A stretch of 64,000 bases of DNA from a virus. Lineage: Duplodnaviria > Heunggongvirae > Uroviricota > Caudoviricetes. Positions 1,243 through 54,679 of this stretch are shown one piece after another. The stretch lies in IMG/VR virus record IMGVR_UViG_3300028048_000122; one strand, 5' to 3'. The first letter of the stretch is position 1. The number at the start of each line of letters is the position of its first letter. Under the pieces are notes generated by a model. The model did no database searches. It was given only the letters and a program-made list of their open reading frames with translations, and was not told the DNA's origin. A program made the position numbers and the translations under genes.

Positions 1243-1587
1243 ATGATTAATCAAACTGTAATAGTAGAACTTAATACTGAAGCTCTTTTGACAAAGAGGT
1301 TCAACATTTGTAAAGAAATTGTGTCAATTCTTGAGCAGAGCGAAGACGATTATGCAGCACTGATTAAAGCTCTGGAAGATAAAGGCATAACTGATGTCGT
1401 AGACTACCTCAATGAGCATGAAATTCCGTGGGCGTATATTGATGTGGATTACGAGCATGTTGAATTTCATGCGCAAAATGCCTTCAGTAAAACCCTGGAG
1501 TTTCTGATTCCGTTTAGCTTTGATGATGCAGAGTTAGATTTGGACATCGAAGAAAATATGGTTATGACGGAGGATGAAGATGACTGA
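1243..1587 (+). CDS. hypothetical protein
   Basis: ATG at 1243 preceded by AAAGGAGG; acidic C-terminus (EDEDD). Confidence 0.5.
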   Translation: MINQTVIVELNTEALLTKRFNICKEIVSILEQSEDDYAALIKALEDKGITDVVDYLNEHEIPWAYIDVDYEHVEFHAQNAFSKTLEFLIPFSFDDAELDLDIEENMVMTEDEDD

Positions 1588-1858
1588 AAAAGAATGCGAA
1601 ACGCGTATCTATGCTGCTATTGATGCGCTAAATCGGTTAGACCATAAACTGACATTCAGCTTTGAGCAAGATGAATGGAGCTGGCGATTAAGAGCAGAGA
1701 ATGCTCATGGTCACAGCTTTGGCGCTTTTGAGCCCATGGTCATATTTGACGACTATAAACGCAAGAAAGATGCATATGTAAGTTTTATGCGGCAGGTAGA
1801 AATTCTACTTGCCGGCACAACGCTTACAGCTAAAGGTGCGTATCACAACTTATATTAG
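1574..1858 (+). CDS. hypothetical protein
   Basis: ORF overlapping previous stop (ATGA); one of only four TAG-terminated genes in window. Confidence 0.45.
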   Translation: MKMTEKECETRIYAAIDALNRLDHKLTFSFEQDEWSWRLRAENAHGHSFGAFEPMVIFDDYKRKKDAYVSFMRQVEILLAGTTLTAKGAYHNLY

Positions 1859-12636: not shown

Positions 12637-12729
12637 GGAGTTGTGGCTGAGAGGCTGAAAGCGGCGCCCCGCTAAGGCGTTATACCCCGCTATAGGGTAT
12701 CGTTGGTTCGAATCCAACCAACTCCGCCA
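12637..12729 (+). tRNA. tRNA-Ser (anticodon GCU), type II, CCA encoded
   Basis: Acceptor GGAGTTG/CAACTCC, 3-bp D stem, anticodon stem GCGCC/GGCGT, loop CCGCTAA (C at position 33 is unusual), long variable arm, T arm GTTGGTTCGAATCCAAC. Confidence 0.7.
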
Positions 12730-12733
12730 TGAT

Positions 12734-12809
12734 GTACCTTTGGCGTAATTGGTAACACGGCAGTCTCCAAAACTGTAAGATGTTGGTTCGAGTCCAGCAG
12801 GGTATGCCA
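12734..12809 (+). tRNA. tRNA-Trp (anticodon CCA), CCA encoded
   Basis: Folded by hand; all positions fit standard 76-nt numbering (U8, A14, G18G19, U33, CCA, A37, T54T55C56). Confidence 0.85.
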
Positions 12810-12813
12810 TTAT

Positions 12814-12888
12814 GTTGATGTAGCTCAATGGGGATAGAGCACCGAAACTGTAACTTCGGAGACTCAGGTTCAAGTCCTGACATCGGCT
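12814..12888 (+). tRNA. atypical tRNA, Tyr-like anticodon loop aCTGTAAc (GUA) with 8-nt loop, type I body
   Basis: Acceptor GTTGATG/CATCGGC (2 G-U pairs), D arm GCTC-AATGGGGATA-GAGC, stem CCGAA/TTCGG encloses 8 nt, T arm TCAGG-TTCAAGT-CCTGA. Confidence 0.5.
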
Positions 12889-12997
12889 TAGCTAATTTAG
12901 TCTGACTGGTCTGATCAGCCGGTTAGGCGAAACACTACTGTAGTGGCCCTAAAGGGCGTGCTCGAAATCCCGAAGTACGTAAAATATGTCGGGATGT

Positions 12998-13072
12998 GGT
13001 TCCGTAGTATAGTGGTCAGTATATCGGCTTGTCACGCCGAGGACACGAGTTCAATTCTCGTCGGAACCGCCA
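12998..13072 (+). tRNA. tRNA-Asp (anticodon GUC), CCA encoded
   Basis: Acceptor GGTTCCG/CGGAACC; loop TTGTCAC; T loop TTCAATT. Confidence 0.85.
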
Positions 13073-13199
13073 TCATGTCCCAGTATCAGGCTAACGTCTG
13101 ATCAGAGGCATACATTTTTCAGGGCGCCCACCGCAGCGCGGCACCACCGTTAATTACACGCCTAATGCCAAATGCGGTTAACTTGAATAATTCCCTGTA

Positions 13200-13475
13200 A
13201 AGGGATTAGATATAGTTGTTGACTCAGACGGTCGGCAACAAAACGGTCACTATCCGGCCGCTCCGTTAACTAAAATCCGTCAGCTACCGGAGGGAAATAC
13301 GATAGGTCCTGAGTAAGACCGAACTGCTCGCTTCTAATGTCCTTCTCCCAGGCTAACGTCTGGTAGGGGATACAAAAACAATCCGGTCACCGTCCGGCCA
13401 CTTATATCGGCTCACAACGGCCCTGATATAAGGGAAACAAGACGGATCCTGGGTACGATATAACTGCCCACGCCC
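13200..13475. repeat. degenerate tandem duplication (~140 bp units) in non-coding DNA
   Basis: Units near 13255-13330 and 13393-13470 share CCGGCC...GGGAAA-ACA..GG-CCTG-GTA-GA...AACTGC...CTAATG; the motif CAGGCTAACGTCTG also occurs twice (13087, 13339). Confidence 0.4.
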
Positions 13476-13479
13476 TAAT

Positions 13480-13555
13480 GGTGCTCATCGTCTAATGGTT
13501 AGGACAGCAGTTTGTGGCACTGCTAATCCCGGTTCGACTCCGGGTGATCACCCCA
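13480..13555 (+). tRNA. tRNA-His (anticodon GUG) with encoded G-1, CCA encoded
   Basis: Extra 5' G pairing with discriminator C; anticodon stem GCAGT/ACTGC, loop TTGTGGC; T arm CCCGG-TTCGACT-CCGGG. Confidence 0.8.
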
Positions 13556-13585
13556 TTTAAAAATATAGGAGAGGAGTTGCTCCTT

Positions 13586-13828
13586 TTGTATAAGAAATAT
13601 AAGGAATATTTTCTGGCCGGCGGCGCGGCAATGAATATCATGAACGCCCTATGGTGGATCGTAGATCCTGAAAGATTCACTGAGATGCTCGAATGCTCCA
13701 CGGTATATGGAGTACTTTTGCTATTCGAGGCCTTCATCATCTTACCAGCCGTGCTATTCGTAGCTGATAAGGCATTCGATAAGTTACACGAGAAGCTCAA
13801 GAAATACCTGGTGATTAACGACAAATGA
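13586..13828 (+). CDS. small hydrophobic membrane protein
   Basis: TTG start after AGGAGAGGAG; two predicted TM segments; the track ORF start overlaps tRNA-His, so it was trimmed. Confidence 0.35.
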   Translation: MYKKYKEYFLAGGAAMNIMNALWWIVDPERFTEMLECSTVYGVLLLFEAFIILPAVLFVADKAFDKLHEKLKKYLVINDK

Positions 13829-14043
13829 AGAAAAAACTGGTTATCACCCAAGATACGATAGATAAGTATATAGCATACGTCATAGCGATGTGCGGCATAA
13901 TCGTGGCCACCTTAATGGTTTACGCTACGGCTAAAGCTGAGTATAACGTAGCTATTGAGTTGACTATGCTGACATTCGTTATCGGGCCGGCACTCGGCTT
14001 TCTGATAGAAAATATAGTTAATTTCATCAAAGAAAGGTTTTGA
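13825..14043 (+). CDS. small membrane protein (72 aa)
   Basis: ORF overlapping previous stop; two hydrophobic helices. Confidence 0.4.
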   Translation: MKKKLVITQDTIDKYIAYVIAMCGIIVATLMVYATAKAEYNVAIELTMLTFVIGPALGFLIENIVNFIKERF

Positions 14044-14201
14044 TTTTCTATGGTAAAAACTTATTCTAACAATACGAAAGATTATAAAGTAGGCAAAAGT
14101 CTCTTTTTCCCCAAGGCTAAATGTTGCGCTACAGTAAATAAGCCAGTTCAGGAAGGCCGCTTAATGGGCCGTTATGTTGCAACTACAGGCAACAAACACT
14201 A

Positions 14202-14426
14202 ATGTTTATCGATAAATACGGCTATTACGCCGTGATTTATAGTCTAGCATATTTTGTTAACATCACTATTTCTGTTCATAACGGCAACAATCCGCCACCC
14301 GAATGGTTTTGGCTTATAAGTTGTTTTTTATTCGGCCCAATTTGCTTAATGATTTTTTATAGAATAGCAGACTGGGTTGAAAAGAAATATCATATTTATA
14401 AGAAGCGAAAGAACAGTGAACTTTAA
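14202..14426 (+). CDS. small membrane protein (74 aa)
   Basis: ORF with two hydrophobic segments, basic C-terminus. Confidence 0.4.
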   Translation: MFIDKYGYYAVIYSLAYFVNITISVHNGNNPPPEWFWLISCFLFGPICLMIFYRIADWVEKKYHIYKKRKNSEL

Positions 14427-14585
14427 CAAGATATACATATTTGGCGCAACATATATGATTATCTGTTGCGTTGCAGCAATAATTATTTGTTCAAAAGCGC
14501 CAATCTAAACCCCCCTCCATGTGACCAACAAGGAAAAGTTGTTAAAACCTGCCATTGTAAAAATTCTATTCTAGGAGAGAAGAAC

Positions 14586-14855
14586 ATGACAGTATACATT
14601 GTTGCTGAGCATACTTTAGTAGATGATTGCGATCAGGACATTCTGGGTGTATTCGATAACGAAGAAGCTGCCAAAGCATGCCTTAAAGCCTATGTGAAAT
14701 CACGTTATTGGGGCAATGAAGACGAGATAGAAGATGACGGTACTTATTATCGCGATAGTGAATGGATGGTTGAAATCCATGAATGCGATATCAAAAAAGA
14801 ATTCAAACCTGAAGATTATTACTGGTATGAAGAACCCGAAGAAGACGAAGATTGA
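14586..14855 (+). CDS. hypothetical acidic protein
   Basis: ATG 14586 after TAGGAGAGAAG; acidic tail like early genes. Confidence 0.45.
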   Translation: MTVYIVAEHTLVDDCDQDILGVFDNEEAAKACLKAYVKSRYWGNEDEIEDDGTYYRDSEWMVEIHECDIKKEFKPEDYYWYEEPEEDED

Positions 14856-15243
14856 TTAATCTTCTCGCGTGACCTGACTGTTAGTTGCCAAGAGAACTAC
14901 ACAGCGAATAAAGATATACAGTGAAATATCAAGTAACTGATTGCAGTGAATGTCAAGTAACTGTATAGCCTCGGAGAGCCCCGAAAGAAACTTGGCCTGT
15001 GGCATCTCCAAAGGACACCGTAAACGCTAAAATGAATTACGGTATCATCCGGCCCTAGAGGACAAGCCGGATAAACGGAAATCGCCCCGGTTAAGTGCGA
15101 GGCTAAAATGACTTCATGTCTTCGGGCATGGTCACTGGACAAGGAAAAGTCTTTAAAACCTCTCACGGCTTTGGATGAGCGATAGATAAAAATCCAGACC
15201 ATCCTAAGGCGGTAGGATGTAAAATAAAGCCGCCCTCGATAAT

Positions 15244-15324
15244 GAGGCAGTAGCTCAAATGGCAGAGCAGACGGGAAAGCAAATGGGGCTTTCTTATGAT
15301 GGTGGTTCGACTCCTCCCTGCCTC
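15244..15324 (+). ncRNA. tRNA-like element with non-canonical anticodon arm
   Basis: Perfect acceptor GAGGCAG/CTGCCTC, normal D arm GCTC-AAATGGCA-GAGC, T arm GGTGG-TTCGACT-CCTCC. The anticodon arm is replaced by an 8-bp hairpin GGGAAAGC-AAATGGG-GCTTTCTT. Confidence 0.3.
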
Positions 15325-15429
15325 CCCTATATAATGCTCATAGTCTGGGGAACACCGGCCGGTAGACAGGTTCGATTCCTGTAATGAGCGCATGTTTCCC
15401 GATATCAAAGAATCGGGCACCAATGGCTA

Positions 15430-16235
15430 CGGGTGCGTATAAGTAGATAGCCAGCTTGAGTCACCGTGGACACTGGATGCCCCTATGTGTAGGAGCATGC
15501 CAGCTTTGCCCGAAGAAGGGGCGCGATCCACGACACAAAAGCTTTCCTTGCGGTGATAGGTTAACCGAAATAAGGGTCTCCATTAACCCTGGCATAGCGC
15601 CAAAAGAGATGACCATTATCGAAGCTTTCACTACCGTCTAACTGGGGAAGTAAGAACTGGATGGCCACGGTTTTTAGCACCCAGCAATAGACGATGTGAC
15701 AGCATTCCTTTCGGTGAAAGGTAAACCGAAAACCAACATTAAACCTGGTCCGCCCCGATAACGCCGTGACGTACAAACGGTAGCTCGGTAAAGTGGTAGC
15801 AAGGTTGCGCCAAGCGTACCTGGATTACTTTTATCTGGATAAACTAAAGTACACGGTTTATCAACTTAAGGATAATAACAGGCACGAAGGTGATTTAGCC
15901 TCCAAGGCGAAAAACGGCGTAGGTTAAGGGCACTACGTAATAAGCCGCCCGAGTCGGAAAAGCCGACATTAAACCTGCATAAGATATCTGCTTGTTATGG
16001 GGATAGAGCAGAGAAACCGGTGGCTACGGCATTAATCCGGTAAACGTCAAAGACATGTAGGGCTCCCCTGCGGGGTGAGTAAGGTACTTGACGGCCGCAA
16101 AAAGACTTTTAGACATCTCAAAGCGAGAACTCGGTCATGAAGACTAACCCATCTTCAAATTCTCCAGATGCTGCTTATCTTTTCGGGCATCAAAAATATG
16201 GTCTTGGCGAATATAATGTAATAGAAAGGTCAATA
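15430..16235 (+). ncRNA. candidate large structured ncRNA (ORF-free ~0.8 kb inside tRNA island)
   Basis: No ORF above 60 aa on the + strand; internal recurring motif CCGAAA...ACATTAAACCTG occurs three times; many local helices; context inside a phage tRNA array. Confidence 0.25.
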
Positions 16236-16239
16236 GTTT

Positions 16240-16536
16240 ATGACGGTTTTAGATGCTCCGTCTACTGTCGAAGTAGATAGAAAAATGCTTTATTGCCTGG
16301 CAAGACGCTTTCAGTCGCTTGAGGCAACAGCAGGCAAGGAAAATTCCCCATTTATGGGATGTGCATGGTGCAAGCTAACTAATGGGGACGAAAAAAAGAA
16401 CTGCATTCATTTCACGAAAGGTGTGGAGTTTTATAAATATTTTAGGGAACTCACTGGAGTGAATCTGTCTATTATTGCGCCAGAAGGCAACAAAATGGAT
16501 AAAGAAGTTGAAATCGGCGAAAAAACCTGGTATTAA
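16240..16536 (+). CDS. hypothetical protein (98 aa)
   Basis: ORF with AGAAAGG RBS. Confidence 0.45.
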   Translation: MTVLDAPSTVEVDRKMLYCLARRFQSLEATAGKENSPFMGCAWCKLTNGDEKKNCIHFTKGVEFYKYFRELTGVNLSIIAPEGNKMDKEVEIGEKTWY

Positions 16537-17119
16537 AGTCTATTATATCATATTCGCCAAGACTAGGCAGGACGACTAGTTATCGTCAATTGCCGTGCCG
16601 CCTTACGAAGCGAGTAGCGCCATGATTCTCTACGGGGGCTTGGCGCGGGCGACAAACATTCAGACCTTGTAAGCGAAGGCAGAAGGGACGCCTTCAATCA
16701 AATCGGTGAAGCTTACTCCTAGTAATGGCCATTTGGCAAAGCTCGGTGGAAAATCCGACAAGGTGCTGCTAATGCTTCGGGCACTAATTAATCACATAAC
16801 TGCTTGTTATAAGCGCGTGTATGACTACCGTGGAGGGGCTGCGCGTGATGGGAGAGGCTCTGCCCGATAGTGGCCAAAAGGTTCAACTACCGTGAGTCCC
16901 ACGGAGAAACAATAAGCCCTGTACCTTATGAAAACAGGCAAAGTGCTGCTTTATGAGAGTTGTTCGGGCACTAAAAACCTGCACTGGCAACTTCATCATC
17001 TTTCAATGCCAGTAAAAGCGTTTGATAACGTTCATCAGCCATTTCGGCTGATTAAGATAAATCTACTAAAAGATAGGTTTGTTTTAATGAACCGATATGG
17101 AAAGAAAGGAAGGGCGGCA

Positions 17120-17680
17120 ATGCCACAAAAAGTTAAATTGTATCTTCTTGGCGGTACTGCTGTCATGGATTTAGTATATTCAGCAACATCTCCTGTTATT
17201 CAAGTGTACTTTATAAGCTTAATAAGTTCCAGCGTTTTAGCGGCGGCCAACATTCTGACGACTGCTTTAGCTGCAGGAGTTAATGCATCTATCCAGTCTG
17301 ATAGACTTAAGGATTTCTACAGACGTCATTTTCTCGGGATAATCGTAATAGATATTGTCTGTTTTGCACTTATTAATTTCGAAGGAATTTCTATTCCTGA
17401 AGTAAGATTTCTCGGTCTAGCGATATTAAATGCGGTATCTTCTACGTTATGGTTTACTGTAGTAACTGATGCTATTAACCATCAGATTGAAGGCGACAAG
17501 TTAACGAAATGGAATAGCTTATCTAAAACAGTTAATCTTACGGCGGCACTTATCGGCAGTGTAATCGCGATAGTATTCACTACGCATATCGGTGTAGAGT
17601 TCTGCATCGCGGCACAGTGCCTAGCGAACTTATTTATGGGCGCAACCGACTGGCTGGCATATAAAAGAATACGATACTAA
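17120..17680 (+). CDS. polytopic membrane protein
   Basis: ATG 17120 after AAAGGAAGG; at least 5 hydrophobic helices. Confidence 0.5.
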   Translation: MPQKVKLYLLGGTAVMDLVYSATSPVIQVYFISLISSSVLAAANILTTALAAGVNASIQSDRLKDFYRRHFLGIIVIDIVCFALINFEGISIPEVRFLGLAILNAVSSTLWFTVVTDAINHQIEGDKLTKWNSLSKTVNLTAALIGSVIAIVFTTHIGVEFCIAAQCLANLFMGATDWLAYKRIRY

Positions 17681-17694
17681 AAGAGGTGCGATTT

Positions 17695-17862
17695 GTGTTT
17701 TTATTTATTGTGGATGCAATGTTCATTTTGACAGAACTTTTTTGTGCGATGAGTATACCGCCTCTTCTGCTTAACGGATATTTTATGTATAGCCTTGTTC
17801 TTGCTTTAACTTTATACGTGGTTTTTCAACTAGATAGGGAATTTCATGTGCGGTATTGGTAA
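17695..17862 (+). CDS. small hydrophobic peptide (55 aa)
   Basis: GTG start after AAAGAGGTG; not in ORF track (below cutoff). Confidence 0.25.
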   Translation: MFLFIVDAMFILTELFCAMSIPPLLLNGYFMYSLVLALTLYVVFQLDREFHVRYW

Positions 17863-18061
17863 GAAAAACAAGATAGTTAGTCTCCAAGACTATAAAGAAG
17901 AGAACAGCCCGCATGAAGTAGCCGAAGTAATCTGCCTGCATTGTATGAATCGTTGGATATCTGTACATGAACAAGGAGAATGGCTTGCTAATTGGGAATG
18001 TCCTAAATGCGGTAAAGCGGGCGGCATTATATATACGGGGCAGCCATTGCCGGAGGAATAA
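17846..18061 (+). CDS. small Zn-ribbon protein (CLHC...CPKCGK)
   Basis: Two CxxC pairs. Confidence 0.45.
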   Translation: MCGIGKKNKIVSLQDYKEENSPHEVAEVICLHCMNRWISVHEQGEWLANWECPKCGKAGGIIYTGQPLPEE

Positions 18062-18243
18062 TGGAATTCAAATTAAACTCAAAGCTCGAAGAATGGGTAA
18101 AAGAACATAATAAAATCTGTCATTCAAATGCTTCAGCCGGCGAACATTATCAGTTTGAGTTCCTGCCGACAGGCATTATGGAAATCCAGACCGTAAAATG
18201 CCTTTGCTGCGGAGAAGAAAGGACAGAATACGATGGTTGGTGA
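18061..18243 (+). CDS. hypothetical small protein
   Basis: ORF overlapping prior stop (TAATG). Confidence 0.4.
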   Translation: MEFKLNSKLEEWVKEHNKICHSNASAGEHYQFEFLPTGIMEIQTVKCLCCGEERTEYDGW

Positions 18244-18466
18244 ATGGGCGCAAAAGTTAACAAAAGAACAAGTCATTAAACATATTCAAGACGGCATAAA
18301 AAAAGCGCATAAAGCATTTTTGGCTCAACAAGCTATCCGTTCAATGAATAAATCCCATAGAAGGCGCCGGCAGATAGCAAAAGCTTACAAGCTGATTTGC
18401 CCAACGGTAGAAATTTGGCTACCGTGCAAGATACATCAAGTTGCAACAACTATAAAATTGTCATAA
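18233..18466 (+). CDS. hypothetical basic protein
   Basis: ORF; weak signals. Confidence 0.3.
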   Translation: MVGEWAQKLTKEQVIKHIQDGIKKAHKAFLAQQAIRSMNKSHRRRRQIAKAYKLICPTVEIWLPCKIHQVATTIKLS

Positions 18467-19714
18467 CAATTGACAAGGAAAAGTCAGTAAAACCCATCAC
18501 AGCAGGAGTGTCTGTGAATACGTTGAGCTCGCACCCAGGAGTCAATAGCCGTGTTGAAGTCCGGCAACGTAGAGGCCAAACACTTAGTCATAATAGCAGT
18601 GGCAGCCCGCAAGGCAAGTGTACGGTGCAAGTCCGTACAGACATTGGCAAGAGAGCTCCAGAACCTGCAGTAAAGCAGCAAAAATCCTCCGCCCACGTTC
18701 GCAACAGGTAAAGGGCGTAAAAGATGTAAACCTGTCCGGCCGAACGCAAAACCTGCCGATGTGCACTTAAGCAGGAAGGTTACTGCCGCCTTAAGAGAAG
18801 AAAAGTGACTCCATGGAGAACTCCCGTATGGTCCGTTCCGCTCCATGGTATAGCTATTGCGTTATGCTATGTAAAAAGTACGCACGTTCGGGCAAACGAA
18901 AGAACCCGCGTAAGGAACAACGAGAGAGATTCCTGTTTTCCCAGCGTTTTTGGTAGAAAAATGTTGCGCGCCTCTTGACCTGGCCAGTCAAGAAAAAGTC
19001 AGCGATATGACCAGGGGGTAATTGGCTTGAGCCCCCGTTATCATGGGAGAATAGACCTGGAATGGAGCCAGGACGGCATTTAGCGTCGTGCAGGGTACGC
19101 GCCCTCAGCGTAAGTTCAAATCTTACATCTCCCGCCTTCAAAATAAATTAAACAGGAGATAAATCGAATGTCTTATCCAGATTGGCTTGACGACGAGGAA
19201 GACAAGATTGACTTCTTTGTTTGATAAGGGGCCATCAGTAGTCCACTGCAAAGGACGAGTCTGTAGAATGATGGGTTGGCATCCTCCGTTTCGGGCGCTT
19301 CGTAAAAGTACCACGGGAGTTGCGGTAGAATTTGCAGCTACCGCAGAATTACTCCCGTAATTATCATGAGCACGAGGCCCAGAGGGCGATACCAAGCAAA
19401 AAGCTTGCAGTGCTCTTTCTATCATGTCCCTAATGAGGTTAACGTCTCGGCGGGGAGGAATCCGTTTTAGTTTATCCTGAGGAATAGGCAATGATGAGTG
19501 CGCACTTATCAGCTGAAACGAAGGGTAAATGAGAGCCCGTCGGCAACCGGGTGCGGAAATAGTATGCAGAGAACTATAACCTGCCGGAGACTCGATTGCC
19601 GTCATAGTTGTCGAGCGTAGAATACCACGTCAGGTGTATCGAAGGAGCTGGTAATCTCCTGACGTCAGCCAAAAACTTACCAGAGGCGGCACATGCCATG
19701 TCGTCTCGCCTTAC

Positions 19715-19789
19715 GGTTCCAAAGCTCAACGGTCGAGCAAACGCCTCATAAGCGTCAGGCTGAGGGTTCAAATCCCTCTGGAACCACCA
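19715..19789 (+). tRNA. tRNA-Met (anticodon CAU), CCA encoded
   Basis: Acceptor GGTTCCA/TGGAACC; D arm GCTC-AACGGTC-GAGC; loop CTCATAA; T arm GAGGG-TTCAAAT-CCCTC. Confidence 0.85.
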
Positions 19790-19992
19790 TAATGGAATAA
19801 GCGAGGTAAAAGTCTCGCGAATTCCTCTCTTTTCCTAAACACACATGAACAACTGCGCCCAGACAGTATAACAGCTGGGTAGTGTTTCGGTGTGCTGAGC
19901 ACGAAAGAAATTCAGCCTTCCACTTATGAGGGGTCGTTAAGAGGCGGGCGCATCGTCGTCGTAGGTTCGAACCCTACCGTCCCTCAACTCAT

Positions 19993-20062
19993 GTCAGCGT
20001 CGGCATAATGGTAATGCCAGGGCCGCAAGCCTGAAATGCGGGTTCGACTCCCGCCGCTGACC
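19993..20062 (+). ncRNA. tRNA-like element with truncated anticodon arm
   Basis: Perfect acceptor GTCAGCG/CGCTGAC, D arm GGCA-TAATGGTAA-TGCC and T arm GCGGG-TTCGACT-CCCGC, but only 19 nt between the D and T arms. Confidence 0.35.
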
Positions 20063-20215
20063 GTACGAGCCATATGGCGCGTCATTCTTTTCGAGGTTTT
20101 CAAGACTTAAACAAGAGAATCTTCGCAACATTATAGGCTTTGACTGGCGTCTGCTTTATGGCAGGAACACAGGGAGGCAAAGCTAGGGGCAGTTGGCAAC
20201 AGCTGCTCCGGTACT

Positions 20216-20297
20216 AGGGGTATCGCCAAGTGGCTAAAGGCACGGGACTTTGACTCCCGCATTCTTCGCGCTGGTTCGAATCCAGCTGCCCCTGCCA
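20216..20297 (+). tRNA. tRNA with anticodon UUG (Gln by anticodon) but type-II-like body, CCA encoded
   Basis: Acceptor AGGGGTA/TGCCCCT; 3-bp D stem with 11-nt loop; stem CGGGA/TCCCG; loop CTTTGAC; 10-nt variable region; T arm GCTGG-TTCGAAT-CCAGC. Confidence 0.55.
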
Positions 20298-20303
20298 TAT
20301 CAT

Positions 20304-20380
20304 GCGTCACTTAGCTCAACAGGCAGAGCCTACGGGTCTAGCTCGTAGAGATTCGGGTTCAAATCCCGAGGGACGCACCA
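20304..20380 (+). tRNA. putative amber-suppressor tRNA (anticodon CUA), CCA encoded
   Basis: Acceptor GCGTCAC/GGGACGC (one mismatch); D arm GCTC-AACAGGCA-GAGC; stem TACGG/TCGTA; loop GTCTAGC with U33 and centre CTA; T arm TCGGG-TTCAAAT-CCCGA. Confidence 0.5.
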
Positions 20381-20385
20381 TTATT

Positions 20386-20497
20386 ATGGGAAGCACCCAA
20401 GGTGGGTTGTAAGTGCCAAAGCAGGTTCGACTCCTGCCACCTCGTAAGAGGTTTGAGGAAAACAGCGGCCCGGTTCGATTCCGGGGCTTCCCGCTTT
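20386..20497 (+). ncRNA. composite tRNA-like element (two T-arm hairpins inside perfect GGGAAGC/GCTTCCC stem)
   Basis: Hairpins GCAGG-TTCGACT-CCTGC and CCCGG-TTCGATT-CCGGG; CCAAGGTGGG motif. Confidence 0.3.
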
Positions 20498-20907
20498 AAA
20501 ACTACCGTAGGGACTACGGAAAGTTACGCCTGTGGAGAGAGTGTAAGACGGATATATTCCAGTTCTCGACGAATCAGGAAGCTCACGCCTCTATAGGCGG
20601 GGGTAGTTCACCATGAAGCTGATGTATTGGTGTCAGTTTGTCTGGTGTGATAACGACACGAGATAAACTATATGGCCATATATTGGCACCGGCAAAAGCT
20701 CAAAACAAAAGTAAGTAGCCGGGGCAAGACCAGGACACCTCCTGGATTTTATTATGTACATCGAGGTTATTATGCATATGCTAATTATCCGAAAAGTTAG
20801 GTGTGGCTTCCGACTCGATGCGGCGAAGAGAGGGTAAAAGGCATAGTGAAGATATCTACAAAGGGCAACCGCGTAAGCGAGCTCCCCGCGAACCGGATAT
20901 CTATCAT

Positions 20908-20982
20908 GGCTTGGTAGTCTAGTGGTTAGGCGACGGTCTGCAAAACCGTTTTACGCCGGTTCGATTCCGGCCCAAGCCTCCA
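20908..20982 (+). tRNA. tRNA-Cys (anticodon GCA), CCA encoded
   Basis: Acceptor GGCTTGG/CCAAGCC; stem ACGGT/ACCGT; loop CTGCAAA; T arm GCCGG-TTCGATT-CCGGC. Confidence 0.85.
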
Positions 20983-20994
20983 TATCATGGGAAA

Positions 20995-21105
20995 CGCCAT
21001 GGTGGCGGAAAAGAGCATTCGGGTTCGATTCCCGACGCCCTGCGGGGTCCGTGGTGGTCAGCCTGGTTCGAGTCCAGGGTTTCCCTCGTTAATCATTTAG
21101 CCGTA
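20995..21105 (+). ncRNA. two tandem tRNA-like minihelices (GGTGG motif + T-arm hairpin)
   Basis: CCATGGTGGCG...TCGGG-TTCGATT-CCCGA and CCGTGGTGGTCA..CCTGG-TTCGAGT-CCAGG; no D/anticodon arms. Confidence 0.3.
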
Positions 21106-21556
21106 GTAATTCTGCGTATGTGAACCTTCCGATACAGCGCCTTAAACGCTCGGAAGCACGGGCTCACAACCCGTGGCAGCTAATATCCTCTGGTTTAAGC
21201 AGAGAACCGGCGTCAGCGAACTACTTTGCATGCGAGAGTTCATTAAGCTGACGAAAAATGGTAGCGGCGGCGAAGTCCTTGCGGTGGATGAGTAGCCAAG
21301 GAGTTCCTATATTGGACAGTAAGAGCGGGTTCGATTCCCGACACGTCGGCAGGCGTCCTGGTGGTAATAAGTGCTGGTGCGCGCAGACTTCAATTCTAGA
21401 TACGAAGTCTGTGCAATTCCAGCAGCTCCATGTGCGTAAACACATAAAAAGAAGCTGATAACCGTGGCGTCAGTTTTCCCTGGCCCGATGGGGACAATAA
21501 TATCATCGGGTTTTGCCGTAGGTGAGGGCGGATACTCATCGTTCACGGGCTATTAT

Positions 21557-21646
21557 GGAGATGTACCCAAGTGGTTTAAGGGGACTGCTTTGAAAGCAGA
21601 TAGGCCGCAGTGATGCGGTGCGCGGGTTCGAATCCTGCCATCTCCT
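21557..21646 (+). tRNA. tRNA-Ser (anticodon UGA), type II
   Basis: Acceptor GGAGATG/CATCTCC; 3-bp D stem CCC/GGG; loop TTTGAAA; variable-arm hairpin CCGCA-GTGA-TGCGG; T arm GCGGG-TTCGAAT-CCTGC; no CCA. Confidence 0.75.
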
Positions 21647-21692
21647 CTCTGTCACGACAAACGCCTTGACGTGGCGACAGAGCTTTTTACCA
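21647..21692 (+). terminator. hairpin + T-run after the tRNA array
   Basis: TCTGTCACG...CGTGGCGACAGAG followed by GCTTTTTACC. Confidence 0.4.
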
Positions 21693-21726
21693 AGATTTGT
21701 CAAAAAAGAAAAGGGGGAAGTTCTCT

Positions 21727-21852
21727 ATGATGAGAGCAATGTTACTTTGTTTGACGGTAGCATTTGTCGGATTATTCGTATATTTCGGTATACACTATGC
21801 CAAAGATGTCGGCCACGAAATAAAGAACACCCTGAAAAAGTTATTCGGTTAA
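21727..21852 (+). CDS. small membrane peptide (41 aa)
   Basis: ATG after AAGGGGGAAG; one TM helix; below ORF-track cutoff. Confidence 0.3.
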   Translation: MMRAMLLCLTVAFVGLFVYFGIHYAKDVGHEIKNTLKKLFG

Positions 21853-21876
21853 AAGCCGAGAAAGGGGATTTTTCTT

Positions 21877-34596: not shown

Positions 34597-35799
34597 ATGG
34601 CTAGTATCGTTCCCGAAAAGAAAATGTCTCTTAAGGAAAAGTTGAAGGTACTCGATGCGGTTGCCGCCAAGACCAACAAACAATACGGCAAGACCATTAT
34701 GGGGCGCATCGGCAAGACTCCCGAAATTATGGATAAATTGATTATTAAGTTTGTCAAAACTCCGTCATCGCGATTAAATCGTGATTTAGGCGGCGGCATT
34801 CCTCGTGGACGCTGTACCATTATTACGGGTGATCCGGATAGCGGCAAGACGAGTCTCTTATTGGAGACTATCGCGGTCAATATGAAAGAAGACCCCGATT
34901 TCACTGCCGGCTGGTTAGAATCAGAACACTCTCTGGAAAAGAATTACATTTGTGAAACCTTCAAGATTGACCCCGATCGCTTTTTCTTTATCCCGTTGGA
35001 CCTTAAGGTCGGTACGGAAAAAACCCTGGACATTGTAGAAGGACTCATCTCTACCGGCGCGGTGGATATGTTCTGCATCAATTCCCTGCGTTGCCTGGTT
35101 CCCGATAAGGAACGTGAGAAAGATATGAGTTCCGAAACCGTAGCTTCTCAGGCACGTATGAATGCTAAGATGATGCGTAAATGGACGGGTACTATCGCTC
35201 AGTACGACACGGCTTTCTGCGTTGTGCAGCACATGACGACGGCCATAGGCGTGATGTACGGCGATCCGAAAGTTCTTGCTGGCGGTGAGGCTTATAGATA
35301 CTGGGCAGCGGTTATCTTGCGCCTTAGCAAGCACTCTGTTCAGGCCAGCGATCCTATCGAGAAAGATGAAGGTCTTAAGATTGGGTATATCATCAAGAAA
35401 AACCATTGCACGCCAGGCGCTAAACGTCAGTACTGCAAAGGTGAGTATTACGTCCGCTTCGGCGAAGGCACCGATGAAATCGCTCCGTCTATTGGCGTAG
35501 GGCTTGAAACCGGATTGCTGGAACGTCATGGCGCATGGCTCTGGTGGATGACGCCTGGAGAAGAAGAACCTCGCCAGAAGTTCAAATCCAAAGCCGAGTT
35601 CGTCGAAATCATGAAGAACGACGAAGAACTCTGGAAAGAGTTTTACGCTCTTGTCCAGGGCGAAGTGCCGCAGGAATCTCTTAGCGACGAAGAAATTGCC
35701 GAGATTGAAGAGGAAGAACGTAACCTGCAGGAAAAGGCTAATGAAACTGAAAAACTATTGGCCGAAGTTGAATCCGAAACCGTGGAGGAAACTGCATAA
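34597..35799 (+). CDS. RecA-family recombinase
   Basis: Walker A GDPDSGKTSLLL; LDxxLGGGxPxGR; loop VLAGGEAYRYWAAVILRL matches RecA L2/strand-exchange region; AAAGGAGG RBS. Confidence 0.7.
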   Translation: MASIVPEKKMSLKEKLKVLDAVAAKTNKQYGKTIMGRIGKTPEIMDKLIIKFVKTPSSRLNRDLGGGIPRGRCTIITGDPDSGKTSLLLETIAVNMKEDPDFTAGWLESEHSLEKNYICETFKIDPDRFFFIPLDLKVGTEKTLDIVEGLISTGAVDMFCINSLRCLVPDKEREKDMSSETVASQARMNAKMMRKWTGTIAQYDTAFCVVQHMTTAIGVMYGDPKVLAGGEAYRYWAAVILRLSKHSVQASDPIEKDEGLKIGYIIKKNHCTPGAKRQYCKGEYYVRFGEGTDEIAPSIGVGLETGLLERHGAWLWWMTPGEEEPRQKFKSKAEFVEIMKNDEELWKEFYALVQGEVPQESLSDEEIAEIEEEERNLQEKANETEKLLAEVESETVEETA

Positions 35800-36452
35800 T
35801 GGCATGTGAGTGGGGCCATACGGACTGCTCAAATGAGGGAATCCGATGTGATACATGCTTCTCGGATTCCCTTCACTACAAACAGGCAGCCGCAAAAAAG
35901 CGTTATGGATTAGCCAAGCATGCTCGCAAACAGGATAAACGTCAAGGTTCGGACTTCGAGGAAAAGACTCGACAGGTAGTGTCTAACGCCATGAGTGACA
36001 AAGCCGTAGTACGTTTAACGATAAACTCGGGAGCTACGGTACACGAGAAAGGCGACGTTCAAATCGAAGGCTTAGTGACGTGCATGATTGAGGACAAAAC
36101 TCAGACTGTCGTTCATAAAGCTAAGGGCGAAAAGACGTTTACTATTCAGCGCGGTTGGCTCACTAAGCTCTTAAAGGAATCTCGTGAAAAACTTAAAGAG
36201 TTTCATTGGCTACTGTTCTCGTTCTATCAGCATGATAACGATATTTATGCTATCACGGAAGCCACCGAGATACTATCCATGGTTAAAACCATGGAGAATG
36301 ATCGGCGCCAATGCAAGATAGAACAGAAAAAAGCTGAAGTAGCTACGCGCCGCAAAGAAATGGTTGAGGCCGAAAACATACGCTTACGGGCAGAAAATGA
36401 GCTGTTAAAAGCTCAGTTGGAGTTAAGAGAGCTCCAGAAACAAGAAAAATAG
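35799..36452 (+). CDS. putative PD-(D/E)xK nuclease / Holliday-junction resolvase-like protein
   Basis: SGATVHEKGDVQIEGLVTCMIEDKTQ fits a D...ExK nuclease core; location after recA; Cys-rich N-terminus; TAG stop. Confidence 0.35.
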   Translation: MACEWGHTDCSNEGIRCDTCFSDSLHYKQAAAKKRYGLAKHARKQDKRQGSDFEEKTRQVVSNAMSDKAVVRLTINSGATVHEKGDVQIEGLVTCMIEDKTQTVVHKAKGEKTFTIQRGWLTKLLKESREKLKEFHWLLFSFYQHDNDIYAITEATEILSMVKTMENDRRQCKIEQKKAEVATRRKEMVEAENIRLRAENELLKAQLELRELQKQEK

Positions 36453-43956: not shown

Positions 43957-45885
43957 TTGAGTGCTACAACAGCTTTGGTAGAGCAGAAGGAACAGGAAAT
44001 CTTGGCGCCGCTCAATGAGCAGCAGCGACTGCCCGCTCAAGACTTTAAGGGTTCCATGATTGTGTTGGCCGGTGCAGGTAGCGGCAAGACGGCTACCGTA
44101 GTTGCCCGCACAAAAAACATGATTAATCATGGTATTGATCCCTACAGTATTTTACTGTTTACTTTTACTCGTAAAGGCGCTGATGAAATACGGGAACGTA
44201 TCATCGCCGGAGTAGGAGAAGCGGGAAAACATGTTACCATGGGAACCTATCACAGTTTTTGTGCGCGATTGTTGCGTCGGCATATCGAAAAGTTTGAGAT
44301 ATGGAATAAACATTTCACTATCTTTGATTCAGAAGACAGTCAGAAGCTAATAAGCGAAGTATTATCTGATTACAAGGAAGATAATGACTTGGAAGTAAAA
44401 GCTCCTGCCGCCGCGAAAACCATTTCCCGTTGGAAAGAACGTATGTGGTCGCCCGTAGAAGCCGAAGAAAAGGCTCAGAATAGTTACGAAAAACTGGTCG
44501 CAAAAATCTATAACGAATACGCCAAACGTTTGCGCGAAAATAACGCTATGGATTTCGACGATTTAATTTATTTTACTATTCGCTTGTTCGAACGTTTTCC
44601 TGAAGTAAAAGCGGCAGTTAATAAACGCTGGAAATATATCACGGCAGACGAATCTCAAGACAGCAGCCCCAGAGATCTTGAATTATTGTATCATCTGGGT
44701 GGTTCTGAAATGAACATTTGTCTCGTCGGCGACGATTTCCAAGCCATATATGGCTTCCGTGGCGCCGATATTGATGCCTTCTTCTATTTTGTAGATGAAC
44801 TTAATCTTAAGAAATATGAATTGGGCCGCAACTATCGTTCCACTCAGACCGTAGTTAATGCGGCAGCTTCCTTAATAGCCAAGAATGAAAACCAATTTTC
44901 CAAGAATGTCTTCTCAAAGAATCCCGTAGGTATGCCTATCGTATCTTACACTATGCGTACTCAGAAAGCTGAAGCGCAAAGAGTAGTGCAGATCGTTAAG
45001 GCCATGTTTAAACGGGGAGTTGACGCTAAAGAAATCGCCGTTCTCTATCGCATGTCTTTCCTGTCTCGGGCCGTAGAAGAAGAATTCATGGCAAATTCTA
45101 TTCCGTATCAGATGAAGTCCGGCACGCCATTTTATGCGCGCAAAGAGATAAAAGATCTCTTAGCATATTTGAAGTTTTATCTCAATCCGAGCGATCAATT
45201 ATCGCTTGAGAGAGCCCTTACTCGCCCTAAGAGAGGCATTGGAGAGAAGGCTCTTAACAAAATTTCTTCTTGCCTTTTTAGCGTCGACTGTGATATACTA
45301 TCACTGAAAGATATAGATAGAATCTACAACGAATCTAATTTTGGTTTAAGAGGGAAAGCGAAACAAGGCTGGGAAAACTTCTTTGAGATACTGACACAAA
45401 TAGATAGCTTAAGAGACGATAAGCCCTCAGAGATACTGGAATGTTTGGTAGCTTTAACGGGATATTTAAAATTTATCAAGGATGAAGACCCGGATAGCTT
45501 TGAAGATAGAAAAAGAAATATTGAAGAGCTGTGCAATATCGCGGATACATACGCTGACCTGGAAGACTTCGTAGCTAATATGACACTAAACGAAGCAGAT
45601 CAGTCAGATGAAGCTTTGAACAAGGTAAATCTGATGACAATTCACGGCAGTAAGGGCGGAGAATGGAAGGCAGTCATCGTAATTGGCTGCGCCCAGGGAA
45701 TTCTGCCTCATTGCCGTTCAGACCTTGAAGAAGAGCGACGTCTGATGTATGTGGCTATGACCCGCGCCAAGGAGTACCTTTTCCTCACGCACCCCGAAAC
45801 GATGATGAATCGGGGGCAGATAACACTACAAGAACCGTCTATTTTCCTGAATGAGATAGACCCACAGTACATTAGAAAACAGTAG
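43957..45885 (+). CDS. UvrD/PcrA/Rep-family superfamily-1 DNA helicase
   Basis: Walker A GAGSGKT, motifs II-VI; TTG start after TAAGGAGG; TAG stop. Confidence 0.8.
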   Translation: MSATTALVEQKEQEILAPLNEQQRLPAQDFKGSMIVLAGAGSGKTATVVARTKNMINHGIDPYSILLFTFTRKGADEIRERIIAGVGEAGKHVTMGTYHSFCARLLRRHIEKFEIWNKHFTIFDSEDSQKLISEVLSDYKEDNDLEVKAPAAAKTISRWKERMWSPVEAEEKAQNSYEKLVAKIYNEYAKRLRENNAMDFDDLIYFTIRLFERFPEVKAAVNKRWKYITADESQDSSPRDLELLYHLGGSEMNICLVGDDFQAIYGFRGADIDAFFYFVDELNLKKYELGRNYRSTQTVVNAAASLIAKNENQFSKNVFSKNPVGMPIVSYTMRTQKAEAQRVVQIVKAMFKRGVDAKEIAVLYRMSFLSRAVEEEFMANSIPYQMKSGTPFYARKEIKDLLAYLKFYLNPSDQLSLERALTRPKRGIGEKALNKISSCLFSVDCDILSLKDIDRIYNESNFGLRGKAKQGWENFFEILTQIDSLRDDKPSEILECLVALTGYLKFIKDEDPDSFEDRKRNIEELCNIADTYADLEDFVANMTLNEADQSDEALNKVNLMTIHGSKGGEWKAVIVIGCAQGILPHCRSDLEEERRLMYVAMTRAKEYLFLTHPETMMNRGQITLQEPSIFLNEIDPQYIRKQ

Positions 45886-49199: not shown

Positions 49200-49697
49200 A
49201 TGAAAATAACAATTAATGGCCATGAACTCAACTACTCTGGCTCGGGAAATATATCCATCAATGGTAACAATGTAGTAATTAACGGCCAGACTGTCAACGG
49301 TGAATTCATAGACGGCAAGTTCATTGATATTTATGTCGAGGGCAACGTAGACAACATCGAAACGACCGGTTCCGTAGCTGTCAATGGCAACGTAAACCAT
49401 GTAGATGCCGGCGGAAGTGTTCGAGTTAGCGGTGACGCTGTTGATGTTGATGCTGGTGGCAGCGTACATGTTGAAGGCCAGGTGCATGGCGATATCAACG
49501 CGGGCGGAAATGTACATTGTGAAGAATTCAAATCATCTCAAACAGACGATCGGCGGTATTACGAAGAGCTCATTAAGGATGCTTATGAGAGTGAAAAGGG
49601 CTTAGAAACCGTAGAGGAAGGCGCACACTTTACGGATACGCTTCGAGCCCTGCTTGGTATAAAGCCGGGCAATAAGAAACGGGGTGACAGAATATGA
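49200..49697 (+). CDS. bactofilin-like beta-helical repeat protein
   Basis: Repeats V.GNV..I...GSV.V.G.V..VDAGGSV.V.G.V.GDINAGGNV resemble bactofilin/DUF583 winds. Confidence 0.4.
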   Translation: MKITINGHELNYSGSGNISINGNNVVINGQTVNGEFIDGKFIDIYVEGNVDNIETTGSVAVNGNVNHVDAGGSVRVSGDAVDVDAGGSVHVEGQVHGDINAGGNVHCEEFKSSQTDDRRYYEELIKDAYESEKGLETVEEGAHFTDTLRALLGIKPGNKKRGDRI

Positions 49698-50125
49698 AAA
49701 CTTGGACATCGCCTAAAGGCGACTACTTAACTCCTGGCGGAGATCCCTTGTATATGTGTCCCGTATGTGGCGAAGAAAGCAAAGAATCGTGGCACGTATA
49801 TGGAATAGAGTCGCCGGAAGCTAGAATGGACAAATGCCCGCATTGCGGTGAGCCATTAAGATATCCTGGAGGATGGATAACCGGCGCCGAAATGGAGCCA
49901 GATAAAGTATACAGAGTAACCAAAGGCAACACTGATGGCAGTGTATTCAAAGGCGATCTGCTTTATATTGACAAAAATGATGGCCGGTTAGTATGTAACA
50001 CTTGTGGATGGCTCGATAAAGAAGACCTTGCCCCAGCTATTATGGACTTTGAATGCGTGTTGGCAAAAGATTACGAAGTATACCGAGAACGCTGGAGTAT
50101 TGGGATAAGAAAAGTTGCCAGATAG
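49694..50125 (+). CDS. Zn-ribbon protein
   Basis: CPVCG...CPHCG...CNTCG; TAG stop. Confidence 0.5.
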   Translation: MKTWTSPKGDYLTPGGDPLYMCPVCGEESKESWHVYGIESPEARMDKCPHCGEPLRYPGGWITGAEMEPDKVYRVTKGNTDGSVFKGDLLYIDKNDGRLVCNTCGWLDKEDLAPAIMDFECVLAKDYEVYRERWSIGIRKVAR

Positions 50126-52053: not shown

Positions 52054-52281
52054 TTAAGTCGTGGAAAACGCGCGCCAGGCTAGACATCTTAAAATTTAAG
52101 AAAAGAAAAGGTCCCTTGTGGGATTCAGCCGTAACCGCTATAGCAATAGGTGCAAGACAGGCGATAGCTCATAATCGGCCGCCTCTTTATGTTCATATAA
52201 AAACGAAACGCAGAAGAGCTTATATTGCTGCGCGGATATTGCTAACCGGTTATGCTCATGAAGTTTGGAAGGGATATTGAA

Positions 52282-52725
52282 ATGAGTGATATCATAGACG
52301 AGAAAAAAGACTCTTTTATACATATCAGATGTTGCGGGCTGGAAACTGATGGGTATATCGCAGATTATAAACAGAAAATAAAAAGATTGCCTCGTAATTT
52401 TCACGAGCAGAATCTGTTTGTCGATCATTGTAGAGCAATTGCTCTCTGTATTCCCAAGTGGATGAGCAAAAAAGGCCCGAGGCACAAAGAACTCTTTGTC
52501 TATCAGCAAAATCAAAACGGTTTATTGTTTGAAGTATTTGATGCTGGCAAAGAAAACTGTTCTGCTTATTTTCCGGAGATAGAATATTTTACTAACCCGT
52601 ATTCACCCAAAAGCTGGGAGTGGTATATCAAACGAGGTTTAAAGACAGGGGCTTTAAAAAGAATCAAAGGATTAAATCATACTTATTGGTACTGTGGTAA
52701 CGCTCAGGGGAAGCAAAAAGCTTAG
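52282..52725 (+). CDS. hypothetical protein
   Basis: ORF; GGAAGGGATATTGAAATG. Confidence 0.45.
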   Translation: MSDIIDEKKDSFIHIRCCGLETDGYIADYKQKIKRLPRNFHEQNLFVDHCRAIALCIPKWMSKKGPRHKELFVYQQNQNGLLFEVFDAGKENCSAYFPEIEYFTNPYSPKSWEWYIKRGLKTGALKRIKGLNHTYWYCGNAQGKQKA

Positions 52726-54031: not shown

Positions 54032-54239
54032 TACAATCATCAATCCAAAGCACGTATGCTACGCAGAGATAATTGAGAATAATGACTGGCTTGGTATTCA
54101 AGACGGCTACATTATTCAATGTAAACTGGACGATGGCAGGAAAATTAAAATAAAGGATTCAGACGGTAGAGGCTTTTCTCGCCTCGAAGCCGATGACGCT
54201 TTGGATGAAATTAACGACGCATTGGAGGCTGACGAATGA
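54018..54239 (+). CDS. hypothetical protein
   Basis: GTG start after GGAGGCC (uncertain). Confidence 0.35.
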   Translation: MRVGNTIINPKHVCYAEIIENNDWLGIQDGYIIQCKLDDGRKIKIKDSDGRGFSRLEADDALDEINDALEADE

Positions 54240-54679
54240 TGAAGTATTTATTTCTCGACATTGATGGCGTAATGAATTCTGCCGCTGACCGGTTTTCTAT
54301 AAAGCTCGTAAACAATGCTCCGTTTGAACGGCTCAAGAAAATTATTGACACTACCGGAGCTAAGATTATCCTGTCTTCTTCATGGCGACATGGATATGAG
54401 CACGGCACTTGCGATTTGCTGAAGCAGCGTTTGGCTGAATATGGTCTATCCATAGAAGACACAACGCCTATTAACAACAATAGGCGTGGAGAACAAATCC
54501 GGGAATGGCTTACGACACATGACTACGATGAAAATGTCGATACCTTTGTCATACTGGACGATGAAGACTTTGATATCTTGGCTCTCTATCCAGAGCAAAT
54601 GGTTAAGACAGATGAAATGATAGGACTGCAGGATTATCAAGTCTGGAAATGTATCGACAAATTAAATCGAAAAAAGTAG
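54236..54679 (+). CDS. HAD-superfamily phosphatase-like protein
   Basis: Motif I FLDIDGVMN, motif II SSSW, later DD; size of PNK-phosphatase/deoxyribonucleotidase type. Confidence 0.5.
   Translation: MMKYLFLDIDGVMNSAADRFSIKLVNNAPFERLKKIIDTTGAKIILSSSWRHGYEHGTCDLLKQRLAEYGLSIEDTTPINNNRRGEQIREWLTTHDYDENVDTFVILDDEDFDILALYPEQMVKTDEMIGLQDYQVWKCIDKLNRKK

Follow-up and report, generated by a model that had tools for sequence, protein, structure and literature searches.

A conserved, atypical tRNA gene with a CUA anticodon in a rumen jumbo phage whose surveyed genes use the standard code

The 64,000-nucleotide stretch IMGVR_UViG_3300028048_000122 of IMG/VR (hereafter the window) comes from a rumen jumbo phage of at least 215 kb and carries a tRNA gene with the anticodon CUA. 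An original prediction, made from the sequence of the window, had joined this gene to an apparent shortage of TAG stop codons and proposed amber read-through or recoding. The analysis presented here establishes the gene and finds it again in related phages, and the phage genes that could be surveyed use the standard code. The gene lies in a tRNA island, in which the following features have to be told apart.

12637..21647, + strand: the tRNA island with the CUA tRNA, comprising 10 tRNAs called by ARAGORN, 2 tRNAs found by Rfam only, further elements, and small open reading frames (ORFs) between them
19045..19137, + strand: a second stop-anticodon element (the UUA element), a class-II-like tRNA-like gene recognized by homology to the ARAGORN 'tRNA-Stop(tta)' of the relatives L035 and L036
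20216..20297, + strand: tRNA-Gln(UUG), called by ARAGORN and by Rfam (55.1 bits), 82 nucleotides (nt) long, of which the variable region takes up ~10 nt, and separated from the CUA tRNA downstream by 6 nt
20304..20380, + strand: the CUA tRNA
20389..20495, + strand: a tRNA-like element whose stem GGGAAGC/GCTTCCC resembles an acceptor and which also has two hairpins like T arms, beginning right after the CCA of the CUA tRNA

ARAGORN calls a 77-nt tRNA with anticodon CTA at exactly the span first proposed for it, and Rfam (RF00005) reports it as well, with 33.1 bits against a gathering threshold of 29 and E = 0.0044 for the whole window. The label 'tRNA-Pyl' attached by ARAGORN restates the CUA anticodon alone. 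The minimum free energy (MFE) fold reaches -30.3 kcal/mol with z = -4.1, and the gene displays a T loop UUCAAAU, a D loop of 8 nt with GG, U33, a purine (G) at position 37, discriminator A and an encoded CCA. The anticodon occupies nt 35-37 of the gene, in the loop G32-U33-CUA-G37-C38 (GUCUAGC), which confirms the earlier reading of this loop with U33 and a central CUA. The good acceptor, D and T arms and CCA that had been described are borne out for the D loop, the T loop and the CCA, and need qualifying for the acceptor, whose 5′ strand has one surplus nucleotide. In the MFE fold A6 (window position 20309) is bulged, giving seven clean acceptor pairs and a U-A connector; ARAGORN draws an A·G mismatch and a 3-nt connector, and the Rfam alignment drops the seventh acceptor pair and places the CCA out of register. 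Position 32 of the anticodon loop, a pyrimidine in canonical tRNAs, is G here; a G32:C38 pair is possible, and the MFE fold shrinks the loop to 3 nt. The CUA tRNA gene is real and, because its anticodon is CUA, could in principle read UAG. Exact segments of it (the anticodon arm, and the T arm plus acceptor) are absent from IMG/VR and GTDB genomes, and blastn against GenBank phages gave no match, so that none of the three collections yielded a homologue of the tRNA body, whatever the anticodon; megablast of the tRNA region against GenBank phages gave no match either. The ends of the CUA tRNA (G1:C72 and A73) show no resemblance to those of phage tRNA-Gln (A1:U72 and G73).

Relatives were found through the Band_7 gene, located 1.5 kb downstream of the CUA tRNA, by following its cluster mates of at least 90% identity to other long contigs. 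L035 (ERZ27280385:k141_1198678) and L036 (ERZ919299:scaffold_12) are two assemblies of a ~250-kb genome, and L042 is a 32-kb contig from ERZ27256863. The tRNA island of the window (13,110-21,876) is collinear with all three at 78-92% identity. The CUA tRNA matches the window copy at 77/77, 77/77 and 76/77 positions in L035, L036 and L042, respectively, the sole substitution being C14 to U in the D stem, by which a C-G pair becomes U·G and the bulged A and the loop stay unchanged. In every relative examined the gene sits 4-6 nt after tRNA-Gln(UUG). The sequence of that tRNA-Gln varies by genome: it has 82 nt in the window, 76 nt in L035 (7866-7941) and 83 nt in L042 (8549-8631), with ~70% identity between the versions and variable regions from 4 to ~11 nt, in surroundings that are 96-100% identical. 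Its position is a local hotspot of tRNA replacement. Since the CUA tRNA keeps its position and its near-identity while the neighbouring tRNA-Gln differs in each genome, the comparison argues that it has been kept in the lineage and would not be an accident. Covariation statistics for the CUA tRNA are uninformative, there being two distinct sequences only.

The UUA element has the loop A-U-UUA-G-C (AUUUAGC), and its anticodon would read both UAA and UAG; the G37-C38 context is common to this loop and to that of the CUA tRNA. Copies lie at 7048-7140 in L035 (93 nt), 122-214 in L036 and ~7373-7465 in L042. ARAGORN calls it 'tRNA-Stop(tta)' in L035 and L036, that is in 2/4 genomes, and makes no call in the window or in L042; Rfam is silent in all of them. 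In the window its 3′ end is GCCTTCA, so no CCA is encoded, and blastn against GenBank phages gave no homologue. Three stem substitutions distinguish the copies of the window, L035 and L042, all of them pair-preserving, and the loop is invariant; that the element is a working tRNA may be proposed with low confidence. Because 58% of the phage genes end in TAA, an efficient UAA reader would harm the phage, so that either the UUA element is weak or inactive in decoding, or both elements serve a role other than recoding.

The window corresponds to the part of a large phage genome devoted to early functions and replication, without virion genes. Among its proteins Pfam and PHROGs recognize gyrase B and A, a RecA/UvsX-like protein, UvrD and SNF2 helicases, ClpP, a ClpX-like protein and other AAA ATPases, as well as single-stranded DNA-binding proteins, NAD-dependent ligase, primase, NrdD, ThyX, guanylate kinase, Gam and HU. 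As the window holds no virion genes, recoding of late genes cannot be judged from it alone, and the genome was followed to both sides. By exact-protein look-ups the window could be assigned to two contigs of ENA ERZ27252073, which extend it by 6.3 kb on the right, to a point inside a DnaE-type polymerase gene. Upstream, the link ran from a Logan contig to the C-terminus of the gene just upstream of the window, to the 90% cluster of that protein, and to JGI contig Ga0256405_10000533 (IMGVR_UViG_3300028048_000080; 124,580 bp), whose last 104 nt are the first 104 nt of the window (104/104). Contig ERZ27252073:k141_718198 (135,477 bp), from the same assembly as the ENA contigs of the window, overlaps the JGI contig over 2274/2274 nt and is also 100% identical to a Logan contig over 3,190 nt. 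The merged, overlap-verified sequence amounts to 118,577 bp, about 55% of a genome of at least ~215 kb (contigs of 135.5 and 79.7 kb).

In these 118.6 kb the 190 genes end in TAA (110, 58%), TGA (61, 32%) or TAG (19, 10%), and none of them is interrupted by an in-frame TAG. The virion module lies on the opposite strand (L041, in k141_718198) and comprises genes of 69, 96, 231, 158, 198, 145 and 511 amino acids (aa), TerL (588 aa; Terminase_6N; L041 13935-15701), a 759-aa gene, the portal gene (706 aa; Phage_portal) and the start of a 435-aa gene; on the other side of L041 there are large ORFs of 463, 728 and 680 aa. No internal stop of any kind occurs in TerL, in the portal gene or in seven other ORFs of 463-759 aa (those of 759, 728, 680, 511 and 463 aa included), and coding density in the L041 virion region is 91% under code 11. 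The stop of the TerL gene is a TAG with a TAA right behind it, and TAG also closes the 145-aa gene, where read-through would add 29 residues; a ~89% identical relative, ERZ27274624:k141_133085 (L034, L038), gives the same picture and has both TAG stops. The suggestion that late genes may be recoded finds no support in TerL, the portal gene and the seven large ORFs, all intact. It had looked to in-frame TAG codons elsewhere in the genome, and over the ~55% scanned there are none.

A comparison of codes gave the same picture. Greedy ORF coverage of the 118.6 kb is 0.892 under code 11, and 0.918, 0.907 and 0.924 when TAG, TGA or TAA, respectively, is read as sense; the gain from TAG (2.6 points, against 3.2 for TAA and 1.5 for TGA) does not exceed that from TAA, and code 15 is not favoured over code 11. 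A single pair of same-frame ORFs of at least 60 aa is joined by a TAG, and it is an artefact made by an out-of-gene ORF upstream of gyrB, whose own N-terminus is complete. The candidate endolysin (Amidase_2, 55586-56221) has no in-frame TAG. Neither RF1, RF2 nor an aminoacyl-tRNA synthetase was found among the Pfam-scanned genes, although the code-change genes for RF2 and synthetases are missing from many recoded phages too (Borges et al., bioRxiv 10.1101/2021.08.26.457843). Hence the phage uses the standard code in about 55% of its genome, terminase and portal included.

For the window itself, ORFs of at least 60 aa on the + strand, on which nearly all its genes lie, were picked greedily and those overlapping RNA genes removed, leaving 91 genes. 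Their stops are TAA in 54, TGA in 29 and TAG in 8 (8.8%); the genes ending in TAG are the following.

1574..1858, + strand: 94-aa gene, next in-frame stop 6 codons on
11817-11999: doubtful small ORF, next in-frame stop 30 codons on
35799..36452, + strand: 217-aa gene, resolvase-like, next in-frame stop 9 codons on
43957..45885, + strand: UvrD-type helicase gene (Pfam UvrD-helicase, 1e-72), next in-frame stop 8 codons on
49694..50125, + strand: 143-aa gene, zinc-ribbon protein, next in-frame stop 5 codons on
52252..52725, + strand: 157-aa gene, newly listed here, next in-frame stop 13 codons on
54236..54679, + strand: 147-aa gene (HAD_SAK_2), newly listed here, TAA directly next
61424..62257, + strand: 277-aa gene, newly listed here, next in-frame stop 18 codons on

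The original prediction had counted only 4 TAG genes in about 70, ending at 1858, 36452, 45885 and 50125. These four are real, the one for the UvrD helicase being an ordinary TAG terminator in a conserved gene, and the count is twice as high. It had also placed a second in-frame stop 4-8 codons after every one of them; the distances are 6, 9, 8 and 5 codons for those four, and over all eight genes (1, 5, 6, 8, 9, 13, 18 and 30 codons) the next stop comes no closer than it does behind TAA and TGA, the median distances being 8.5 codons for TAG, 15 for TAA and 7 for TGA (Mann-Whitney p = 0.26). As a trinucleotide, TAG is scarce in all frames of the window (614, against 1396 for TAA and 1221 for TGA), and its low share among the stops follows from this composition. 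The 'depleted, backed-up' TAG stops are therefore not more than composition and chance give, and the tolerated read-through that they had been taken to show finds no backing in such ordinary stop statistics.

The terminase is closest to that of Moorella phage MTATph1 (44%), followed by those of jumbo phages like Bacillus 0305phi8-36 (31-38%), and the 90% clusters of the virion-side genes include members annotated from a metagenome-assembled genome of Selenomonas sp. (MBR1696406.1 to MBR1696408.1); the host is probably a bacterium of the Firmicutes/Negativicutes. Most large virion-side ORFs have no match in PHROGs and Pfam, and no relative of the portal protein was found in GTDB genomes. Searches for related loci with an early small gene and with the primase returned none, tblastn of the 450-aa protein against GenBank phages gave nothing, and the matches of the AAA ATPase there reached at most 29%. 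The IMG/VR sequences L003-L009 were considered as genome-wide relatives and rejected: they have the Band_7 gene alone in common, with a few island-side genes in L005 and L006 only, and none carries a CUA tRNA. The close relatives have undergone a large rearrangement. In the ~250-kb genome (L035 10001-20888) the tRNA island and the Band_7 block are directly upstream of a block with DUF1599, AAA, 252-aa and 381-aa genes, whereas in the phage of the window (compared with L031/L032) the small early genes intervene and the distance from one block to the other is about 40 kb.

Some features of the wider genome were recorded along the way. The 30 kb upstream of the window contain small early genes and genes for an archaeo-eukaryotic-type primase, a DUF1599 protein and an AAA ATPase. 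About 26-29 kb upstream of the window start there is a 2.4-kb AT-rich stretch free of ORFs (L032 3500-5884), with hairpin-plus-T-run terminators; the idea that it is a recoded gene was rejected, as no stop reassignment yields an ORF, and it is non-coding. It probably marks where the module of large virion-side genes borders on that of the early genes. At the other end, the Pfam NRDD matches are split over three ORFs (window 59965-61338 and 62393-63262, and L001 12626-12961) with unrelated ORFs between them, among them the TAG-ending ORF at 61424-62257. This arrangement suggests a gene interrupted by inserted elements, and Rfam finds no group I intron there. Further on, beside the DnaE-type DNA polymerase III alpha gene, which the end of the contig truncates, are ParA and ParB-like genes (L001 14496-16389 on the - strand and 17039-17911), which hint at a plasmid-like maintenance capacity of the jumbo phage.

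The tRNA island contains other RNA elements. At its head, at 12020-12603 (+), there is a full-length ROOL RNA (Rfam RF03087, 215 bits), and the best sigma70-like match of the region, TTGACT-17-TATAAT (11469-11497), is just upstream of it; RNAs of this family are known near phage tRNA islands and form RNA nanocages (PMC12286853). The tRNA at 12814-12888 (+) scores 51.7 bits in Rfam, has an anticodon loop of 8 nt (ACUGUAAC, with a CCGAA/UUCGG stem) or of 6 nt, receives no anticodon assignment from ARAGORN ('gt', Thr|Tyr) and encodes no CCA; it may represent a tRNA of the frameshift type or a degenerate one akin to Tyr(GUA). The two Rfam-only tRNAs, at 15244-15325 and 19993-20062 (+; 38.8 and 39.8 bits), are not called by ARAGORN in the window, and their counterparts in L035 lie at 2925-2996 (called 'tRNA-???(aa)') and 7644-7713. 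The element at 20389-20495 is conserved in L035 (8026-8135) and in L042, with a fold z of -1.75 only and no match to an Rfam family. It is one of several recurrent elements of ~100-110 nt that start TATTATGGGAA directly after the CCA of a tRNA, found also at L035 8519-8617 and L005 9357-9453. In each of these double-T-arm elements a closing stem like that of an acceptor is combined with two hairpins like T arms (GGTTCGA(C/T)TCC); the elements are kept between relatives and have no Rfam match, and ARAGORN labels one of them as a 97-nt 'tRNA-Ser(cga)'. Further T-arm-like hairpins occur in the window at 21019-21035 and 21326-21340. A tmRNA is present in the islands of some of the more distant phages that share the Band_7 gene (L004, L005).

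With respect to known UAG-reading tRNAs, the classical amber suppressors supE (Gln), supF (Tyr), supD (Ser) and supP (Leu) each derive from an identifiable sense tRNA by the change of one anticodon base, and their position 37 is A. The CUA tRNA is like them in presenting CUA on a tRNA-like body with U33, and differs in its G32, G37 and C38 and in having no sense-tRNA parent in the collections searched. tRNA-Pyl is distinguished by a small D loop without GG, a 3-nt variable loop, a 1-nt connector between acceptor and D arm and a non-canonical T loop, and goes with pylS/pylBCD in the genome. The CUA tRNA shares with it the anticodon and a possible sixth anticodon-stem pair (C27:G45). The identification as tRNA-Pyl was nevertheless rejected, given the 8-nt D loop with GG, the T loop UUCAAAU, a variable region of 4-5 nt and a connector of 2-3 nt, and no pyl genes were seen among the scanned proteins. 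Readings as tRNA-Sec or as an 8/4 allo-tRNA-like molecule were ruled out by the short variable arm and the canonical D and T loops.

Phages with TAG recoded in code 15 (crAss-like, Lak and recoded jumbo phages; bioRxiv 10.1101/2021.08.26.457843, PMC13037316, PMC9523058) resemble the present phage in that a CUA tRNA is found among standard-code early genes, and in being large gut or rumen phages with a tRNA island. There the suppressor tRNA is encoded among standard-code early genes, and it is the structural and lysis genes that are recoded, terminase and portal being among those reported (bioRxiv 10.1101/2021.08.26.457843; PMC13037316). Here, in contrast, there is no in-frame TAG in 118.6 kb, TAG terminates 19/190 genes, code 15 brings no density gain, neither RF2 nor a synthetase was found, and the tRNA body is unlike phage tRNA-Gln, with an atypical acceptor and anticodon loop. 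Suppressor tRNAs also occur in some standard-code relatives of recoded phages (bioRxiv 10.1101/2021.08.26.457843), so that a suppressor-type tRNA in a standard-code phage is already described in the literature. A standard-code Agate phage reported to carry a TGA suppressor is a parallel of this kind, and its type of suppressor tRNA has been proposed as a step preceding recoding (Borges et al., bioRxiv 10.1101/2021.08.26.457843). The present case differs from it in the anticodon, CUA and not UCA, in the presence of the UUA element alongside, and in that no recoded close relative was identified.

We propose, tentatively and with somewhat less than even confidence, that this jumbo phage, with its standard code, carries a suppressor-type tRNA that is conserved, of atypical structure and probably weak. 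In this proposal the CUA tRNA, which shares its strand with all the genes around it, is probably transcribed with its island. Provided that processing and charging take place, its effect would be weak amber suppression; expression and charging, like the suppression, are inferred. The phage would tolerate such weak suppression because TAG ends only ~10% of its genes and read-through would add just 1-30 residues. The tRNA would not be serving a TAG reassignment of the code 15 type, and the state would match the description by Borges et al. of standard-code phages with an acquired suppressor tRNA.

Several observations weigh against this proposal. The bulged nucleotide in the acceptor stem argues against efficient decoding, and so do the possible G32:C38 pair and G37. 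Efficient suppressors are reported to prefer A37 in the work of Yarus in 1982 and of Kleina in 1990. In the 'extended anticodon', positions 32, 37 and 38 covary with the anticodon, A37 is favoured in efficient suppressors, and tRNAs for U-starting codons also favour A37 (PMC11231383). Because G37 and the loop depart from this pattern, the loop literature leads us to expect that the CUA tRNA suppresses amber poorly in a bacterial system. With 33.1 bits the gene is also the lowest of the 13 Rfam tRNA matches in the window, the canonical members of the island reaching 52-68 bits. The spacer around it is ~96% identical as well, which makes the 77/77 identity weak evidence of selection (0.96^77 is ~0.04). 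Finally, the remaining ~45% of the genome presumably holds the capsid, tail and most lysis genes.

The same low score, aberrant acceptor, G32/G37/C38 loop and equally conserved flanks fit a decaying or non-decoding tRNA-like gene in a fast-changing island, where CUA would be a mutational accident that was kept since the genomes diverged recently. The island has other aberrant members (the loop at 12814-12888, the two Rfam-only tRNAs, the double-T-arm elements and the UUA element without CCA), and the lack of a tRNA homologue in IMG/VR, GenBank phages and GTDB genomes points the same way. Decay is nevertheless harder to reconcile with a gene whose position is shared by four genomes, each of a different sample, over a span in which the adjacent tRNA-Gln was replaced three times, with a sole substitution that preserves pairing, and with an intact CCA, T loop, D loop and U33. 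On balance we consider this explanation a serious one, though unlikely. Much less room is left for a true code-change suppressor, with TAG read as sense in the capsid, tail or lysis genes of the part of the genome that was not read. In the model of Borges et al. the suppressor tRNA does sit in a standard-code early region, and late and lysis genes alone are recoded; of the three stops of this phage TAG is the least used, and the survey left out ~89 kb of k141_718198 (46,647-135,477; equivalent to positions 1-94,625 of IMGVR_UViG_3300028048_000080) and, in the 79.7-kb contig, ~9 kb. Yet terminase and portal, reported as recoded elsewhere, are intact here, and the terminase gene even ends in TAG. 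The candidate endolysin is uninterrupted, the density gain from TAG does not stand out from those of the other stops, and TAG stops are conserved between relatives in a phage in which RF2 and synthetase genes were not found. We regard recoding as very improbable.

Another explanation would direct the CUA tRNA and the UUA element, as stop-codon readers, at targets other than the phage: they might disturb host termination, or occupy A-site stop codons and so blunt host defence. The original prediction had likewise named manipulation of host translation as an alternative, and the findings speak neither for it nor against it. Two stop-complementary anticodons conserved in one island of a standard-code phage, sharing G37-C38 and situated in the early region, would fit such a role. 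The argument is purely inferential, with no defence-related partner identified; efficient reading of UAA would hurt the phage as well, and the UUA element is a weak call. We hold this explanation to be rather improbable. If it were true, host- or defence-directed stop readers would be a new functional class of phage 'suppressor' tRNAs.

Suppressor tRNAs of phages are usually taken as markers of stop-codon recoding. The CUA tRNA described here is kept in at least four related genomes, yet the 190 surveyed genes follow the standard code; a suppressor-type tRNA call alone should therefore not count as evidence of an alternative code. Should the CUA tRNA and the UUA element be inactive, the island would document the build-up of decaying tRNA-like genes in phage tRNA arrays. 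Should they be charged and active, they would offer a natural system for the role of suppressors before or without recoding, and would also show how far the geometry of the acceptor stem and of the anticodon loop can stray and still work.

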